A stretch of 32,000 bases of DNA from Microcystis aeruginosa NIES-843. GTDB taxonomy: Bacteria; Cyanobacteriota; Cyanobacteriia; Cyanobacteriales; Microcystaceae. Of the stretch, positions 2,953 to 8,433 are shown one piece after another; within the stretch, counting starts at the first letter, position 1; the number at the start of each line of letters is the position of its first letter. A program made the position numbers and the translations under genes. The notes under the pieces are model-generated. The model was given only the letters and a program-made list of their open reading frames with translations, did not search any database and was not told where the DNA came from. The DNA lies in contig NC_010296.1 of NCBI RefSeq assembly GCF_000010625.1, positions 5,730,001 to 5,762,000 on the forward strand, written 5' to 3'.

Positions 2953-3053
2953 AGGGAAAATCTAGGGAATACTACGTTAGACTAGGACGAAAAAACCCCT
3001 AAGTAGCTGGTTATAATTAAATTAAAAATGGATTTTAGGTTCGATCCCCCCTG

Positions 3054-3109
3054 CCCCCCTTGATAAGGGGGGTGCCGATCCCCCCTTAGTCCCCCCTTGA
3101 TAAGGGGGG
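3054..3109. repeat. Two copies of a 19-nt GC-clamped palindrome, CCCCCCTTGATAAGGGGGG (3054-3072 and 3091-3109)
   Basis: Read directly. Each copy can form a 6-8 bp C6/G6 hairpin. The spacer contains a related gatcccccctta motif. Looks like a small MITE-like or REP-like intergenic element. Confidence 0.8.
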
Positions 3110-3169
3110 TTTCTGATAATTTTTAACGCCTACCTACTTAACTTTTCAGCATAACCCTATAATACCGTC

Positions 3170-4060
3170 ATGAAATCCGATCGACCCCCATCCTCCCAAG
3201 ATTTGCCCCTCTCGATCGTCCATCAACCCAGTTCAGCCATCGATCCCGCTCAGGAACCAGAATACCTAGAAGCTTCTGTCATTAACGTCTATCCCCAAGC
3301 TGAAGATGTCTTTTTTACCCCTTGGGGTATCCGGGCAATGGTGATCTTTTTAATTGCTAATAGTCTCCTCAGTCTCAATCAATGGTTAACCAATACTACC
3401 CCCACCCCGAGGAAAACTGAGAATTCCCCCCGCGAGCAGCGCCAAAATAACTCCCGCCACCTCGATCGATTGATAGCGATCGCTCGTCCAGTACAGAAAA
3501 CTCCTCAAACCAGTCCGATCGTTAATATTCCCGCTCCTCCGGTTAAAACTAGCCCGATAACTAACATTCCCGCCCCACCAGTGGTTCAGAGTCCCCCCAG
3601 AGCTAGAAATCTGACTAATGCCCTCTTACCCCCGAATCCGCCACCGTCCCCAATGCCGGCCCATCAATTACCCGTCAGTAAGATCAAGCAATCTTTACCC
3701 GTCGCCCCCCCGAACCCCAGCACCCCGCCCGTATCTTCCCTAGTTTCTGCACCACCGCCACCACCGCCCCAAGTTACCCCCGCCCCCTCGACCGCGATCA
3801 TTAACGAACGAATGTTGGAGGAATTGCGTCAAAGAGAAGAATCACCCGCTAATTTACCCTTTTTTCAACGGGAAAAAGCCCGTCGCTTGGCCAATCAAAA
3901 CCGACAGGAGGCGGTGGAGTTAATGAAACAGTTACCGCCAGAATTACAAGCATCCCCTTCTCCCAGTAGTCCGGCACCTTCAGAAACAGCCGATCCCTCC
4001 CAGTCCCCCGTCCCTAGTTCTATCATTATTGATAGGAGCGGCACTTCGGTAAACTATTAG
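3170..4060 (+). CDS. Proline-rich protein with one predicted TM segment (hypothetical)
   Basis: 296-aa ORF with a hydrophobic stretch (GIRAMVIFLIANSLLSL), the internal repeat SPIVNIPAPPVKT/SPITNIPAPPVVQ, and long PPPP runs. Its stop lies 22 nt before the pspA start on the same strand. Confidence 0.6.
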   Translation: MKSDRPPSSQDLPLSIVHQPSSAIDPAQEPEYLEASVINVYPQAEDVFFTPWGIRAMVIFLIANSLLSLNQWLTNTTPTPRKTENSPREQRQNNSRHLDRLIAIARPVQKTPQTSPIVNIPAPPVKTSPITNIPAPPVVQSPPRARNLTNALLPPNPPPSPMPAHQLPVSKIKQSLPVAPPNPSTPPVSSLVSAPPPPPPQVTPAPSTAIINERMLEELRQREESPANLPFFQREKARRLANQNRQEAVELMKQLPPELQASPSPSSPAPSETADPSQSPVPSSIIIDRSGTSVNY

Positions 4061-4082
4061 GGTTCCTATCGGGAGGACGGCA

Positions 4083-4739
4083 ATGGGTTTGTTTGATCGC
4101 ATGGGCCAAGCAATTCGCGCCCAAGTCAATAGTCTGATTCAGGAAAATCAAGATCCCGAAAAACTGCTGGAAAAGGCGATCTTGGCGATGGAAGGGGAAT
4201 TGATGCAAATGCGACAAGCCCTGGCGGCAGCCGTCGCTACCCAGAAACGTACCGAGCGCCAACGACAACAACAGGAAAAAGCGGCCCAAACTTGGCACGA
4301 ACGCGCCCAATTAGCCCTACATCACGGTAACGAGGAACTCGCCCGCCAAGCTCTCAGCCAATGGCAAACCTATCAAAGTCAGATCGCCCCCCTACAAACC
4401 TCCCTGCAACAACAGACGGCTATTATACAAAAGTTAAAGAAAGAACTCTTGACAATTGAACGCAAATATGCTGAGATGAAAGCACAAAAAAGCCTTTATG
4501 TGGCCAGATTGCGATCGGCGAGTGCCAGTCAAAAAGCCCAAGAAATTATGGGCAGTTTGAACAGCAGTCAGATGGGAACTATTTTCGAGAAATTAGAAGC
4601 AAAAGTCTTAGAAGCCGAATCCCAAGCCGATTTAATCCAGTATAAAGACCCCTTAGAGCGACAATTCCAAGATTTGGAGGGACAAAAACAAATTGAAGCG
4701 GAATTACTCAAGTTAAAACAAGAAAACTTGGATGGGTGA
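4083..4739 (+). CDS. pspA: PspA (phage shock protein A / IM30 family, short form without the Vipp1 C-terminal tail)
   Basis: 218 aa with the N-terminus MGLFDRMGQAIRAQVNSLI...DPEKLLE, diagnostic of PspA/Vipp1. It has coiled-coil composition and a GGGAGGA ribosome-binding site 5 nt upstream. Confidence 0.9.
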   Translation: MGLFDRMGQAIRAQVNSLIQENQDPEKLLEKAILAMEGELMQMRQALAAAVATQKRTERQRQQQEKAAQTWHERAQLALHHGNEELARQALSQWQTYQSQIAPLQTSLQQQTAIIQKLKKELLTIERKYAEMKAQKSLYVARLRSASASQKAQEIMGSLNSSQMGTIFEKLEAKVLEAESQADLIQYKDPLERQFQDLEGQKQIEAELLKLKQENLDG

Positions 4740-4740
4740 T

Positions 4741-4860
4741 GTGGGAAGTGGGGTGTAGGGTGTGGGGTGTGGGGTGTGGGGTGTGGGGTGTAGGGTGTGG
4801 GGTGTGGGGAGAAAAAAGCTGTCTCCTGACTCTTGACTCCTAACTCCTATCGCCTATCCT
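4741..4860. repeat. STRR-like heptamer array: about 10 x GTGGGGT (4741-4810), then about 5 x CTCCTGA-type heptamers (4824-4860)
   Basis: Read directly. It starts 2 nt after the pspA stop. The + strand (mRNA sense) carries at least 8 GGGG runs separated by TGT. Confidence 0.9.
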
Positions 4861-4960
4861 AGCTCTCGTGGTTTATATTAGAGAATAAGCCGTTAGGCAA
4901 GATAGGAAATTTTAAGAACAGTTAACTGATTTAGTACACACCGAGAGGAACAAGAGCGTC

Positions 4961-5734
4961 ATGGGTTTATTCGATCGCCTTAGCCGAGTTGTCCGAGCTA
5001 ACCTCAATGATATGGTGAGCAAGGCTGAAGATCCAGAAAAAATGCTGGAACAAGCTGTCAGTGATATGCAAGAGGATCTAGTACAGGTACGTCAAGCGGT
5101 CGCTAGAGCGATCGCCGAACAGCGACAAACGGAACAAAAATACAGCAAAGACCAGTCAGAAGCCAATAAATGGGAACAAAGAGCCAAATTAGCCCTTTCT
5201 AAAGGGGATGAAACTCTCGCCAGGGAAGCTCTTAAACGCAAGAAAGATTTCACGGAAACCGCCGCCATTCTCAAAAATCAACTGGATCAGCAAACGGTAC
5301 AGGTAGATAGTCTGAGAAAAAACTTGATTGCGCTCGAAAGTAAGATTTCTGAGGCAAAAACCAAGAAAAATATGTTAGTAGCTCGCTCCAGAGCCGCAAA
5401 AGCTAACGAAGAAATCCAAAAAACCCTCGGCAGTATCGATACCAGTAGTTCCATGTCCGCTTTTGAGCGCATGGAAGAAAAAGTTGTGCAGATAGAAGCC
5501 CGTAGTCAAGCGATCGGTGAATTGGGTGGCATCGACATGGAACGTCAATTCGCTGCACTAGAATCGGGTAGCGATGTGGAGGATGAATTAGCAATGCTGA
5601 AAGCACAAATGTCCGGGGGAGCATTACCGGGTACAGCTTCTAGTCAACCCACTTTACCCCAAGCAACCACCGTCAGGGATTCGGCAGTGGATGCGGAATT
5701 AGAGGAATTGCGATCGAAGTTGAAAGAACTGTAA
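4961..5734 (+). CDS. vipp1: Vipp1 / IM30 (vesicle-inducing protein in plastids 1)
   Basis: 257 aa with the N-terminus MGLFDRLSRVVRANLNDMVSKAEDPEKMLEQ. It has the extra C-terminal extension ending DSAVDAELEELRSKLKEL that distinguishes Vipp1 from PspA. Confidence 0.9.
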   Translation: MGLFDRLSRVVRANLNDMVSKAEDPEKMLEQAVSDMQEDLVQVRQAVARAIAEQRQTEQKYSKDQSEANKWEQRAKLALSKGDETLAREALKRKKDFTETAAILKNQLDQQTVQVDSLRKNLIALESKISEAKTKKNMLVARSRAAKANEEIQKTLGSIDTSSSMSAFERMEEKVVQIEARSQAIGELGGIDMERQFAALESGSDVEDELAMLKAQMSGGALPGTASSQPTLPQATTVRDSAVDAELEELRSKLKEL

Positions 5735-5749
5735 AACTTTGAGAGCGTC

Positions 5750-5783
5750 GAGACGTACCATCTACGGTACGTCTCTATTTATT
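5750..5783 (+). terminator. Hairpin terminator after vipp1
   Basis: Perfect 10-bp stem, GAGACGTACC (5750-5759) pairing with GGTACGTCTC (5766-5775), a 6-nt loop, then a T-rich tail (tatttatt). Confidence 0.6.
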
Positions 5784-5840
5784 AATTTTGTTGTTGAGAT
5801 AGGGAATATTAATTGCTAGTCATAATTAACCATCACTATT

Positions 5841-6812
5841 ATGCGGGATGATTTATCTAATTTACGTTCCTCAATTATCGAAGTAATTGCCTTACAAAAA
5901 AGAGCCGAACAACAGTACAACCAGGCACAAGCTGAGGTTTTAAAATGGCAAGAAAGAGTTAAACTCGCCCTAGATAAAGGTGATGAGTCTCTGGCACAAG
6001 AAGCTAATATAAAGAAAAAACATCACATTAATACCGCAAATATTATTAAAAATCAACTGGAAAAACTGAATATCCAAGTTGATAAACTGAAAGAAAAATT
6101 GCCAATTTTAGAAAGAAAGATTAACGAAAAAAGTATCGGCAGTATAGATACTAGCATTGACAAGGCGGTTTTTGAAGTCCCAGAGGGAAAAGTTAGACAA
6201 TTGCAAGATCCTAGTCAAATTTATGACGAATTGGACGGGATGGCAATCGAAAAGAAATTACCAAGATTAGACATGGCCGAAATAATCACTTTACAAAAAA
6301 GAGCAGAACAACAATATAATCAAGAACTAGCGGAAATTTTAAAATGGGACAGGAGAGCTAAATTAGCTAGATCTGAAGTAGATTATTCCCTTGTTAGAGA
6401 AGCTTTTAGACAAAAAGAGAATCATATTAATATCGCCAATATTATCAAAAGTCAGATCGAACAAATTAAAACTCAAGTCGATACTTTAGCAAAAAACTTA
6501 ACTATTTTTGAGAATGGGAACAATAGTATTTACCGTTCAGCTTTTGAGCGCATGGAAGCAAAATTTATGCAGTTAGAATCCAGTAGTCAAGCTGACGGTG
6601 AAATCGGTGGCATCGGCATGGAACATCAATTCACGCTAGAAGCGGGTAGCGATGTGGATGATGAATTAGCACTGCTAAAAGCACAAATGTCTGGGGGAGT
6701 ATTACCCAGTACAACTTCTAATCAAAGCAATTTACCCCCAGCAACTACCGTCAGCGATTCAGCAGTAGATGCAGAATTAGAGGAATTGCGATCGAAGTTA
6801 AAAGAACTGTAA
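5841..6812 (+). CDS. Aberrant Vipp1-like paralog: two tandem degenerate Vipp1 core repeats plus one Vipp1 C-terminal tail; no N-terminal amphipathic helix
   Basis: 323-aa ORF. Residues ~13-140 and ~146-265 both align to the Vipp1 core (LQKRAEQQYNQ..AE.LKW..R.KLA....). The last ~95 aa, and ~25 nt past the stop, are close to vipp1 at the nucleotide level. The ORF stays open through AT-rich DNA. I see no obvious Shine-Dalgarno sequence. Confidence 0.65.
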   Translation: MRDDLSNLRSSIIEVIALQKRAEQQYNQAQAEVLKWQERVKLALDKGDESLAQEANIKKKHHINTANIIKNQLEKLNIQVDKLKEKLPILERKINEKSIGSIDTSIDKAVFEVPEGKVRQLQDPSQIYDELDGMAIEKKLPRLDMAEIITLQKRAEQQYNQELAEILKWDRRAKLARSEVDYSLVREAFRQKENHINIANIIKSQIEQIKTQVDTLAKNLTIFENGNNSIYRSAFERMEAKFMQLESSSQADGEIGGIGMEHQFTLEAGSDVDDELALLKAQMSGGVLPSTTSNQSNLPPATTVSDSAVDAELEELRSKLKEL

Positions 6813-7167
6813 AACTTTGAGATTGTCGAGACGTATTACAGCCCTTCTCATCAATATGAAGTATAGCCTAATCTGGTATCTAAGACCGAAGACTGGCTAA
6901 TGTTAACCGTTTCGGGGTTCCCCAGAACAAAAACTTTGTACCTCATCATTATAAAAAAATTCCCAAATAATGCCGCTCAAAACCCTTTAATTCTGAAGAT
7001 AATCCTAAGATTCAGCCCGAAAAAGAGCCAGAAAGGTGAGGATAGCTAGGATGGAAGTGAAAAGCAATTTTGACTCGAAATTATCCCAAGGGATCGATCG
7101 CATTTAACGAAACCCTTACCCCAACAGCATAAGACAAGAGAAGGACTTATTAAGGAGAAACCCAGCC

Positions 7168-8317: not shown

Positions 8318-8433
8318 TATCAGGATTCAGGAGTCAGTATTCAGTATTCAGGAGGCAGTATTCTCCCCACACCCCACACCCCACACCCCACACCCCACAC
8401 CCCACTTCCCCAATCCCCAAACCCTATCCCCTA
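8318..8433. repeat. STRR-like heptamer array in reverse orientation: TCAGGAG/TCAGTAT heptamers, then about 6 x ACCCCAC
   Basis: Read directly. It is the reverse complement of the architecture at 4741-4860 and fills the pntAA-pntAB intercistronic spacer. Confidence 0.9.

Follow-up and report, generated by a model that had tools for sequence, protein, structure and literature searches.

Judged by its sequence, MAE_61950 (protein BAG06017.1) of Microcystis aeruginosa NIES-843 is a vipp1-derived paralog that lacks helix α0, carries two hairpin units from which the α3 end and elbow are deleted, and ends in a Vipp1 tail. On balance, we favour the reading that this accessory gene was once under selection, that it is now relaxed and dispensable, and that its product is a candidate modulating subunit.

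A third paralog at an ordinary pspA–vipp1 locus

The analysed window, a 32,000-nucleotide (nt) stretch of the NIES-843 genome, contains the four-gene, same-strand cluster described in the original prediction, with + strand open reading frames (ORFs) for a Pro-rich protein, PspA, Vipp1 and a 323-amino-acid (aa) PspA/IM30 protein. The first, MAE_61920 (3170–4060, +; 296 aa, 19% Pro, a single hydrophobic segment at about residues 51–69), gave no match in Pfam or NCBIfam and lies upstream of pspA with a gap of 22 nt; a Pro-rich ORF with one hydrophobic segment also stands immediately 5′ of pspA at 41 of 70 other cyanobacterial loci. Both pspA (MAE_61930; 4083–4739, +; 218 aa; PF04012 at 1.4e-41 over residues 2–214) and vipp1/IM30 (MAE_61940; 4961–5734, +; 257 aa; PF04012 at 6e-65; product an exact match to BAG06016) are full length, the former with the MGLFDR helix α0 and the latter with α0 and the C-terminal extension, and their products share 41% identity. 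Of these two membrane-repair genes, pspA was intact in 16 of 16 loci examined and vipp1 in 24 of 24; comparison of the Vipp1 hairpin gave 100% conservation with locus L161 and 94% with Pannus. The tandem pair pspA→vipp1 recurs at 74 of 135 non-Microcystis cyanobacterial loci, and a third copy beside it at 0 of 135. The Pro-rich/pspA/vipp1 order is an ordinary cyanobacterial arrangement, and the cluster departs from it only in the third paralog.

That paralog (5841–6812, +) proved to be a PspA/IM30 family member by PF04012 (3.9e-25; 89 bits in two stretches, the best of which spans only profile positions 35–131 of 220) and matches N. punctiforme Vipp1 in phmmer at 5.8e-36. Its hairpins are 40–48% identical to Vipp1 and 25–31% to PspA, which places its origin in vipp1 rather than pspA. 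Immediately 3′ of vipp1 is a terminator-like hairpin (5750–5775, +), a 10-bp stem followed by a T-rich run, whose left arm is repeated 3′ of the paralog, where the hairpin is degenerate. Nucleotide similarity to vipp1 runs beyond the paralog stop codon into a copied vipp1 3′ flank (AAACTTTGAGA..GTCGAGACGTA; 6813–6838, +), which speaks for duplication or conversion of the DNA and against constraint on the protein; this common flank and the position beside vipp1 suggest an origin by tandem copying.

Architecture of MAE_61950

The start of MAE_61950 is equivalent to Vipp1 Met36, so that helix α0 is missing, as had been claimed, together with the first 12 residues of α1. An in-frame TAA lies 6 codons 5′ of the ATG, and blastn-short detected no trace of vipp1 codons 1–35 upstream. 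The proposed pair of tandem degenerate Vipp1-core copies, offset by 133 aa, was recovered both by BLASTP and as an internal DNA repeat (5879–6084 versus 6278–6483; 71% identity, E = 8e-24) with an offset of 399 nt, or 133 codons. In BLASTP, residues 1–144 align with Vipp1 36–201 at 40% identity across a 22-aa gap at Vipp1 134–155, and residues 142–323 align with Vipp1 44–257 at 50% identity across a 32-aa gap at about Vipp1 131–164; the AKTKKNML...EELQ segment (α3 end/elbow) is absent from both units, again as predicted. The single Vipp1-type tail was confirmed; its final 18 residues are identical to those of Vipp1.

The unit 1 hairpin (codons 1–104; 5841–6152, +) corresponds to Vipp1 36–133, shares 48% identity with the Vipp1 hairpin and 54% with that of unit 2, and retains the conserved KGDE at its tip; AF2 places helices at residues 2–46 and 49–100 (pLDDT 70–89, and 84–95 in a one-unit allele). 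It is followed by a linker (codons 105–145; 6153–6275, +) that is a degenerate remnant of unit 1 α4 and α5N, with weak alignment to Vipp1 156–201 and pLDDT below 50 over residues 98–143. The unit 2 hairpin (codons 146–225; 6276–6515, +; predicted helices at 145–178 and 182–225) shows 40% identity to its Vipp1 counterpart and has a diverged tip, SEVDYSLV where the Vipp1 type is KGDETLA. The tail (codons 229–323 plus stop; 6525–6812, +) holds α4, α5 and the Vipp1-type C-terminal extension, but its F197/L200 (interface-3) register is broken (QFT-LE), and is broken or deleted among alleles. Foldseek superposed the predicted hairpins on those of Vipp1 and PspA with rmsd values of 1.2–1.4 Å, in keeping with the ESCRT-III-like hairpins anticipated.

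The two predicted hairpins, the retained Vipp1-like hairpin tip, α5C and C-terminal extension, and co-induction with pspA (below) would suit a dedicated, conserved regulator, a doubled-hairpin, α0-less cap or partner needed by Microcystis Vipp1 rings, which is the original prediction in its strong form. However, the interface-3 residues are unconserved, the likeness of the tail to Vipp1 is attributable to conversion, and the paralog was not found in any other cyanobacteria sampled. This reading is also contradicted by the allele survey, and we regard it as highly improbable.

Inactivation and collapse in the Microcystis clade

Of 23 readable Microcystis-clade paralog alleles, 13 are disabled, and two loci have no paralog gene. 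The disabling changes are of six or more independent kinds, among them a lost start codon, nonsense, frameshift, insertion sequence (IS) insertions with confirmed IS elements, and large replacement. No lesions were seen at the surveyed loci in the control genes pspA, vipp1, pntA and the Pro-rich gene. Apparent stops flagged in dciA were rejected as lesions, as they reflect only variation in C-terminal length, at the fourth-last codon. The lesions indicate that the paralog is dispensable in crown Microcystis, and the expectation that related strains would be free of frameshifts and stops failed.

The commonest intact allele has one unit, in which the unit 1 hairpin is fused to unit 2 α4. The first 183 nt of such alleles differ at 0–8 positions from the two-unit window allele, and on this comparison the one-unit alleles are deletion derivatives of the two-unit form; conservation does not extend to the doubled-hairpin design. 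The paralog was not found in Pannus, and its family forms only two 50%-identity clusters among 1.84 billion representatives. MAE_61950 is, within the sequences sampled, a lineage-restricted PspA/IM30 family member of Microcystis and one close relative.

Past selection and present expression

The MAE_61950 frame has 0 internal stops in 323 codons, whereas the other five frames have 13–37 each. Relative to vipp1, the hairpins show saturated dS (at least 2) and dN of 0.42–0.49. Stop codons can be created by 162 single-base changes in the ORF, and the frame would stay free of them with a probability of 0.0045 for K = 0.1 and of 1e-7 for K = 0.3. The divergent L161/L162 lineage, with dS of 0.24–0.34 for vipp1 and pspA, also keeps the ORF intact, and nonsense mutations number 0 in alleles without a large structural lesion. 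Maximum-likelihood (ML) dN/dS is 0.39–0.59 for the paralog, compared with 0.15–0.26 for vipp1 and 0.15–0.22 for pspA; values approach 1 in residues 99–145 and in the tail since its conversion. By region, ω is 0.61 in the unit 1 hairpin, 0.77 (indistinguishable from neutral) in the linker, which is deleted in one-unit alleles, and lowest, at 0.23, in the unit 2 hairpin, yet this is the hairpin missing from the commonest intact allele. These comparisons show that long past selection maintained the paralog as an open gene for predicted helical hairpins, and that present constraint is relaxed. The claim that MAE_61950 is not a dead pseudogene holds for NIES-843, given the open frame despite saturated dS, dN/dS below 1, transcripts and predicted hairpins, but not as a statement about the clade, in which the gene is dispensable and often disabled.

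Alternatively, the paralog could be a decaying vipp1 duplicate with no current role in any strain, its NIES-843 frame left over from past function or gene conversion and its transcripts arising by terminator read-through. The disabled and missing alleles fit this account, as do ω values of about 0.8–1.3 in residues 99–145 and about 0.65 in the tail, and the removal of F197 by in-frame indels in otherwise intact alleles. GC content is 36% in MAE_61950 and 46.5% in vipp1, and the paralog GC3 of 0.20–0.34 (vipp1, 0.43) accords with weak or absent selection on translation. Neither a convincing promoter nor a Shine–Dalgarno sequence was found 5′ of the ATG, and with the strong terminator-like hairpin between vipp1 and the paralog, the transcript could be read-through. 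Against this account, hairpin ω is 0.09–0.30 between the window and L001, both intact crown alleles, and unit 2 is constrained overall; moreover, alleles free of large lesions show none of the roughly 16 nonsense mutations expected from their 280 or so substitution events, whereas already-broken remnants acquired three.

The expression data bear on both sides. In an RNA-seq study of strain LE-3, whose reads were mapped onto NIES-843 and whose allele may differ from that of NIES-843, transcripts were assigned to MAE_61950, as expected, at 12–16 FPKM in controls and 24–32 FPKM under nutrient stress. Its level in these LE-3 reads, about 4–5% of vipp1, is typical for read-through. Its nutrient-stress fold change (2.0–2.5) nevertheless tracks that of pspA (2.3–2.6; MAE_61920, 2.9–4.9) and not that of vipp1, which rose 1.57-fold in low P and is not listed as changed in the study's passages on low-N, HMWDOM or HMWDOM+P. 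A second data set gave a DESeq2 baseMean of 449 for MAE_61950 against 561 for pntA, a value to which cross-mapping from the vipp1 3′ end may contribute. Weighing these points, we consider a functionless relic rather unlikely.

Gene conversion of the tail

In contrast to the saturated hairpins, the MAE_61950 tail differs from vipp1 by a dS of 0.20 and a dN of 0.13, and paralog tails share 85–89% nt identity with vipp1 3′ ends. The low dS points to recent gene conversion from vipp1, the probable source of the Vipp1-type tail, which has evolved almost neutrally since its import.

Such exchange raises the idea that the paralog acts mainly at the DNA level, as a reservoir. Through gene conversion it would trade α4–α5/C-terminal sequence with vipp1, and this trade would supply the unusual variability seen in that part of Microcystis Vipp1. 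Besides the tail dS and the similarity past the stop codon, this idea draws on Vipp1 residues 150–215 being hypervariable and mosaic while residues 1–130 are nearly invariant, and on a vipp1-like 'PSDMER' stretch in the L003-type paralog. However, vipp1 and paralog are no closer in same-genome than in different-genome pairs (80.4 versus 80.4%, 83.6 versus 82.6% and 87.1 versus 86.5% identity), so any conversion still under way is too slow to detect; judged by Pannus, several of the 'paralog-like' vipp1 states are ancestral, and transfer in the paralog-to-vipp1 direction would be an assumption. We consider a reservoir role unlikely.

Proposed history and mode of action

For the favoured reading, a once-selected and now dispensable accessory paralog, the sequence comparisons indicate that a tandem vipp1 copy shed codons 1–35 (helix α0 and the α1 start) and also the conserved α3 end and elbow (about Vipp1 132–155), that the shortened hairpin unit doubled internally long ago, and that the 3′ third was later replaced via gene conversion from vipp1. 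Within crown Microcystis, many strains now have a gene collapsed to a single unit, and in others it was repeatedly inactivated.

The product would be soluble, with one or two hairpins; given the roles assigned to the Vipp1 parts lost and kept (PMC8281802, PMC11919738, PMC12636044), it would be without the α0 contacts that serve membrane insertion and the stacking of rungs (interface 2) and without the interface-3 register, while keeping a Vipp1-like unit 1 tip, α5C and the C-terminal extension. If active, it would most likely join Vipp1/PspA polymers by hairpin packing and by α5C-to-hairpin-tip contact (interface 1). There it may be a modulating subunit that does not propagate, and its effect on fitness would be small and would depend on the strain.

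Comparison with known systems

The closest counterpart is Vipp1/IM30 itself, the ESCRT-III superfamily member of cyanobacteria and plastids (6ZVR, 7O3W), on which the predicted α1–α2/3 hairpin of MAE_61950 superposes at 1.2 Å, and with which it shares α4, α5C and the Vipp1-specific C-terminal extension. Unlike Vipp1, MAE_61950 lacks α0, the α1 start, the AKTKKNML..EELQ α3 end and the elbow, has the hairpin unit twice and a broken F197/L200 register, has diverged widely from a Vipp1 hairpin that is itself 94–100% conserved, and is encoded by a dispensable, often inactivated gene. PspA (MAE_61930; E. coli 4WHE) has the same family membership and hairpin fold (rmsd 1.4 Å, 99 columns) and, in the LE-3 RNA-seq, is likewise stress-induced; it has α0 and a complete α1–α5 but no C-terminal extension. 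VIPP2 of Chlamydomonas is a stress-induced, lineage-specific VIPP1 duplicate thought to co-assemble with VIPP1. It resembles MAE_61950 in being such a duplicate, but is full length, retains the N-terminal helix and has an independent origin.

Laboratory truncations of Vipp1/IM30 offer a further parallel. An engineered α1–3 hairpin fragment binds acidic membranes by itself (PMC12636044), and loss of interface 3 (F197K/L200K) or deletion of the C-terminal domain alters the polymer form of Vipp1 (PMC11919738). MAE_61950 is a natural combination of such losses, although, unlike the truncations, it lacks the hairpin base, has two hairpins and is known from sequence and predicted structure. The literature yielded no experimental characterisation of the protein, in agreement with the original prediction, but it had already been catalogued: a 2024 PSP survey that lists PspA dyads, triads and repeated PspA_IM30 domains of cyanobacteria illustrates the triads and repeats with BAG06017.1/MAE_61950, in the context PspA->PspA->PspA(s) (PMC11237479). 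That entry is the same protein and covers its domain architecture and neighbourhood; the loss of α0 and of the α3 end, the conversion, the collapse to one unit and the frequent inactivation of MAE_61950 go beyond it.

The third gene in an ordinary cyanobacterial cluster

The third PspA/IM30 gene of the cluster, MAE_61950, is a lineage-restricted, relaxed and dispensable variant of vipp1, and in NIES-843 it is no pseudogene. All four same-strand open reading frames of the original prediction are present in the window: a Pro-rich protein (MAE_61920; 3170–4060, + strand; 296 aa, 19% proline, one hydrophobic segment), pspA (MAE_61930; 4083–4739, +; 218 aa; PF04012, 1.4e-41), vipp1 (MAE_61940; 4961–5734, +; 257 aa; PF04012, 6e-65; with the Vipp1-type C-terminal extension) and the paralog itself (MAE_61950; 5841–6812, +; 323 aa; PF04012, 3.9e-25). 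PspA and Vipp1 both start with MGLFDR and are 41% identical to each other. Exact-sequence look-up returned BAG06016 for Vipp1 and BAG06017 (WP_012268312, UniProt B0JKG3) for the paralog. On the 5′ side of the Pro-rich gene lies dciA (PF05258, 2.1e-14; 2392–2952, − strand), and 3′ of MAE_61950 lie the pnt genes MAE_61960–61980. All these MAE locus tags were taken from RNA-seq tables (PMC3720943 supplements).

The Pro-rich protein had no family match in Pfam or NCBIfam, and some longer relatives gave weak, sub-threshold SPOR matches at the C terminus. Of 70 pspA–vipp1 loci in other cyanobacteria, 41 have a Pro-rich reading frame with a single strongly hydrophobic segment immediately before pspA and on its strand, which makes the cluster without its third gene the ordinary cyanobacterial arrangement. 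Examples among these relatives' loci are L047:1507–2772, L018:1075–2481 and L007:2065–2952, and dciA is often divergent upstream. Pannus brasiliensis and one uncultured relative keep the order dciA(−)/Pro-rich/pspA/vipp1 and have no paralog. The pspA–vipp1 tandem pair occurs at 74 of 135 non-Microcystis cyanobacterial loci, and a third copy at none of the 135. Outside Microcystis, the only relatives with the same architecture came from one divergent relative in a JGI metagenome (L161, L162). When 1.84 billion cluster representatives were scanned exhaustively with HMMER, only two clusters of the paralog family were recovered, one two-unit and one one-unit; the remaining matches were ordinary Vipp1 or PspA proteins aligned from their residue 36 on. 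The third gene does not count among the conserved components of Vipp1 machinery.

Several short repeats accompany the cluster. The heptanucleotide TGTGGGG is repeated 10 times in the pspA–vipp1 spacer (4740–4809), its complement CCCCACA 8.4 times just past pntA (8365–8424), and a related 14-mer 1.9 times at 1492–1518. Between dciA and the Pro-rich gene (3042–3110), a 37-nt unit present 1.9 times contains the palindrome CCCCCCTTGATAAGGGGGG twice and scored as terminator-like.

Anatomy of MAE_61950

The paralog scored 89.2 bits against PF04012 (cut-off 33.9) in two stretches, the better covering profile positions 35–131 of 220, and scored far under the cut-offs of the NCBIfam PspA equivalog models. 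BLASTP aligned its residues 1–144 with Vipp1 36–201 (40% identity, with a 22-aa gap at Vipp1 134–155) and its residues 142–323 with Vipp1 44–257 (50% identity, with a 32-aa gap). At the DNA level, the internal repeat has an offset of 399 nt, or 133 codons, with copies that are 71% identical (E 8e-24); the hairpins of the two units share 54% protein identity. The ATG is homologous to Vipp1 Met36 and is preceded, at a distance of six codons, by an in-frame TAA; no significant remnant of vipp1 codons 1–35 was found upstream of the gene. The C-terminal 18 residues are identical to those of Vipp1. The original description of a protein that lacks the MGLFDR helix α0, repeats a degenerate Vipp1 core at an offset of 133 aa, misses the same segment in both copies and closes with a single Vipp1-type tail was thus accurate.

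In structural terms, the paralog is without α0, the first 12 residues of α1, the end of α3 and the elbow, and both hairpins are shortened at the base by aa 24–35 and about 134–142 (Vipp1 numbering). The deleted segment, AKTKKNML.AR..AAKANEELQ, is among the most conserved stretches of cyanobacterial Vipp1. Neither unit has the elbow; α4 and α5N are degenerate in unit 1, unit 2 has α4 and a well-conserved α5C, and the Vipp1-type C-terminal extension (~40 aa after α5) is present.

An old core and a young tail

Unit 1 is 48% and unit 2 40% identical to the Vipp1 hairpin, although the latter is fully (100%) conserved in L161 relative to the window and 94% conserved in Pannus. Synonymous divergence is saturated (dS at least 2; dN 0.32–0.49) between vipp1 and each unit and between unit 1 and unit 2, so both the copying of the gene from vipp1 and the doubling of its unit are old. 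The tail (the last 92 codons: α4, α5 and the C-terminal extension) differs from vipp1 by a dS of 0.20 and a dN of 0.13, and the similarity runs ~25 nt beyond the stop codon into a remnant of the vipp1 terminator. The low dS and the shared 3′ flank indicate that the tail was overwritten from vipp1 by gene conversion, comparatively recently. Ongoing concerted evolution of the two genes was also considered and rejected: vipp1 and paralog tails from the same genome are as similar as those from different genomes, so conversion is not detectably ongoing, and we retain the older event.

Some strains carry one-unit alleles of 183–198 aa, in which the unit 1 hairpin (to ...SIGSIDT) is fused to unit 2 α4 (IY[PR]SAFERMEAKF...). 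These differ from the two-unit window allele at 0–8 bases over the first 183 nt and are recent deletion derivatives. The two-unit form, common to the window, L161 and L162, is ancestral.

Relaxed selection on intact alleles

In NIES-843, the frame is open for 323 codons from an ATG, is identical to the deposited BAG06017.1 and contains no disabling lesion, whereas the other five frames of the same DNA contain 13–37 stops each. Given 162 single-base paths to a stop, the probability that the frame stayed open under neutrality is 0.0045 at K=0.1 and ~1e-7 at K=0.3. The frame is open in NIES-843, L001, L161 and L162, and the dS of pspA and vipp1 between L161/L162 and NIES-843 is 0.24–0.34. Among ~280 substitution events in paralog alleles without large lesions, none was nonsense, against ~16 expected.

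Whole-gene maximum-likelihood dN/dS among these four sequences is 0.39–0.59 for the paralog, against 0.15–0.26 for vipp1 and 0.15–0.22 for pspA. Counting segregating changes by region, with the codon alignment partitioned by hand for the one-unit alleles, gave ω of 0.61 for the unit 1 hairpin (p = 0.044 against neutrality), 0.77 for residues 105–145 (not significant), 0.23 for the unit 2 hairpin (p = 9e-4) and 0.51 for the tail (p = 4e-4); the same count gave 0.18 for pspA, 0.27 for vipp1 and 0.11 for pntA. The gene was clearly held by selection for most of its history, and its intact alleles still show relaxed purifying selection. GC3, at 0.20–0.34 in the paralog and 0.43 in vipp1, is a sign of weak constraint. 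The original view that this is not a dead pseudogene holds on the 323 open codons, the whole-gene ω and the transcripts detected (LE-3 reads on NIES-843; see below). The same prediction had named a dN/dS near 1 as counting against it; such values are found solely in the linker (residues 99–145) and in the tail since conversion, and the whole gene lies well below them.

Microcystis Vipp1 itself is nearly invariant over residues 1–130. Its α4–α5 region (5410–5605, codons ~150–215, and the corresponding part of L001–L006 and L081–L098) is hypervariable, with mosaic haplotypes, and this variability raises the pooled vipp1 dN/dS to about 0.27–0.36.

Repeated inactivation in other strains

The paralog is dispensable. 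A readable allele was present at 23 Microcystis-clade loci, and ten of these alleles are intact: four two-unit (the window, L001, L161 and L162) and six one-unit (L004, L085, L086, L087, L089 and L090). The other 13 carry disabling lesions. L002 and L083 have AGG in place of the ATG start; in L003, L088 and L092, an insertion cuts the product short at 140 aa; in L005 (L005:39–4000), codon 13 is interrupted by a 3.96-kb insertion sequence that encodes a DDE transposase and a DUF4277 protein; codons 62–302 are replaced by ~620 bp of unrelated DNA in L006, L096, L097, L098 and L135; L082 has a frameshift near codon 247; and L084 breaks off after about codon 213. At two further loci (L091 and L093), vipp1 is present and the paralog absent. 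Frameshifts and stops in orthologues, which the original prediction had reckoned against a meaningful gene, are therefore common. The control genes at the same loci were always intact: pspA (16), vipp1 (24), pntA (13) and the Pro-rich gene (14).

Apparent stops in dciA were considered as control-gene lesions and rejected, being merely a polymorphism four codons from the C terminus; the stop at the fourth-last codon gives DciA proteins of 182 or 186 aa among strains (window, L001, L003, L085, L093).

Nonsense mutations are confined to the replacement alleles, where three arose independently, at codons 8, 18 and 37, after the replacement. In the 61-codon remnants (L006:4776–4958, L096:2752–2934, L097:2873–3055 and L098:5099–5281), nonsense changes make up 3 of ~7 private changes, against about 6% expected by chance. 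This excess could be accidental, or selection may have favoured the silencing of a harmful fragment.

In other strains, insertions are frequent between vipp1 and pntA, which makes this interval a hot spot. Upstream of the paralog, an IS605 TnpB element lies at window position 5819–5823 (L098:3759–5076, also L097), an ISL3 element at 5786–5802 (L082:1410–2961) and a 276-bp element containing tandem ATGAATCAACCCTACT-like repeats at 5808/5809 (L003:4720–4995). The metagenome contig L082 also contains, behind its frameshifted paralog, an extra partial paralog start (L082:3951–4279; equivalent to window 5735–5976, codons 1–46), implying a further tandem duplication of the locus there.

Transcripts of the paralog

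Transcript evidence comes from two data sets of strain LE-3 and is indirect for NIES-843. In the first (PMC3720943), LE-3 reads of 100 nt were mapped onto NIES-843, each with no more than 2 mismatches allowed, and stress was imposed as low N, low P, HMWDOM or HMWDOM+P. MAE_61950 rose from 12–16 FPKM in controls to 24–32 under stress (2.0–2.5-fold) and pspA from 35–47 to 80–120 (2.3–2.6-fold); the strongest induction in the cluster was that of the Pro-rich gene MAE_61920, from 2–3 to 7–11 (2.9–4.9-fold). For vipp1, the change was from 311 to 489 (1.57-fold) in low P only, and the gene is not listed as changed in the passages on low N, HMWDOM and HMWDOM+P. The response of the paralog is thus nearer to that of pspA than to that of vipp1, and its transcripts amount to ~4–5% of the vipp1 level. 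In the second data set (PMC5311399), the DESeq2 baseMean was 449 for MAE_61950 and 561 for pntA, with a looser mapping that could admit vipp1 3′-end reads to the MAE_61950 count.

A sequence scan found no usable promoter or Shine–Dalgarno sequence before the paralog; the sole + strand promoter-like match overlaps its ATG and so could not serve it. Read-through from vipp1 is therefore a live alternative source of these transcripts. A terminator-like hairpin with a 10-bp stem (5750–5775) sits in the spacer that separates the two genes.

Predicted fold and possible role

In Nostoc punctiforme Vipp1, α0 spans aa 1–22, the hairpin aa 24–142 and the C-terminal extension aa 220–258 (PMC8281802). Helix α0 faces the lumen as its lining, attaches to membrane and makes the contact between rungs known as interface 2 (PMC8281802; PMC11919738); F197 and L200 of α5N form interface 3 with the hairpin tip (PMC11919738); and α5C with the hairpin tip forms interface 1, the domain-swap contact that builds the filament (PMC8281802). 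The isolated α1–3 hairpin of IM30 alone can bind acidic membranes (PMC12636044).

For the 323-aa paralog, AlphaFold2 predicted two hairpins of the ESCRT-III type sought in the original prediction, at residues 2–46/49–100 and 145–178/182–225 (pLDDT 70–89), with a disordered joiner at 98–143; the hairpin of a one-unit allele was predicted at pLDDT 84–95. Foldseek superposed the paralog hairpin on Vipp1 (6zvr; r.m.s.d. 1.2 Å over 100 columns) and on Escherichia coli PspA (4whe; 1.4 Å over 99). On these models, the product, if made, would consist entirely of helices and have one or two hairpins of ESCRT-III type. Its closest likenesses to Vipp1 are the unit 1 hairpin tip (KLALDKGDESLAQEA), α5C (SDVDDELALLKAQM) and the C-terminal extension. 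The F197/L200 register is shifted in the window allele (QFT-LE), and the segment is deleted in several other intact alleles. Net charge of the unit 1 hairpin is similar to that of the IM30 hairpin, and as a discriminator net charge was uninformative, failing to separate the paralog from Vipp1.

If the product has any activity, this would probably come from its entry into Vipp1 or PspA assemblies as a subunit unable to stack or anchor, which would then modulate or terminate the polymers. This is a weak form of the cap or modulator role originally suggested, a reading to which we assign low probability. The allele survey shows that any effect of the paralog is not essential and that doubling is not required. 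A bolder version, which we regard as improbable, is that MAE_61950-type proteins are natural α0-less ‘poison’ or capping subunits that use the hairpin and α5C to enter Vipp1 (or PspA) assemblies and limit or tune polymer growth in stress; that the way in which thylakoids and membranes of a given bloom-forming Microcystis strain respond to stress depends on whether the strain has such a protein, with one hairpin or two, or has lost it; and that the nonsense excess in already-truncated alleles reflects selection to silence harmful fragments.

Relation to the known PspA and Vipp1 proteins

The original prediction knew of no such protein having been characterised. Literature searches on Microcystis Vipp1 or phage shock protein, the accession and the locus tag found no paper characterising the MAE_61950 product, but a comparative-genomics survey of the PSP system cites the locus by accession (PMC11237479). 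Its supplement lists BAG06017.1, MAE_61950, from Microcystis aeruginosa NIES843 as PspA->PspA->PspA(s)->, an example of repeated PspA domains in one polypeptide, so the triad and the repeated-domain architecture are already on record. The present analysis adds the anatomy (loss of α0, the α1 start, the α3 end and the elbow), the age difference between the old core and the young tail acquired by conversion, the one-unit allele derived by deletion, how often and in what ways the gene is inactivated, estimates of selection and evidence of expression.

As it stands, MAE_61950 is mainly a well-documented lineage-specific paralog caught between retention and loss, in which a core that diverged long ago and a tail converted recently go together with a collapse in copy number and recurrent inactivation. 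If the protein is active, it might modulate membrane repair in a bloom former of ecological importance, and it would be a ready-made tool for the roles of α0, the hairpin base and interface 3 in bacterial ESCRT-III assembly. It leaves knowledge of PspA and Vipp1 unchanged and is of modest specialist interest as a natural truncation which, were it active, would be a Vipp1 derivative with the polymer contacts kept and the membrane anchor gone.
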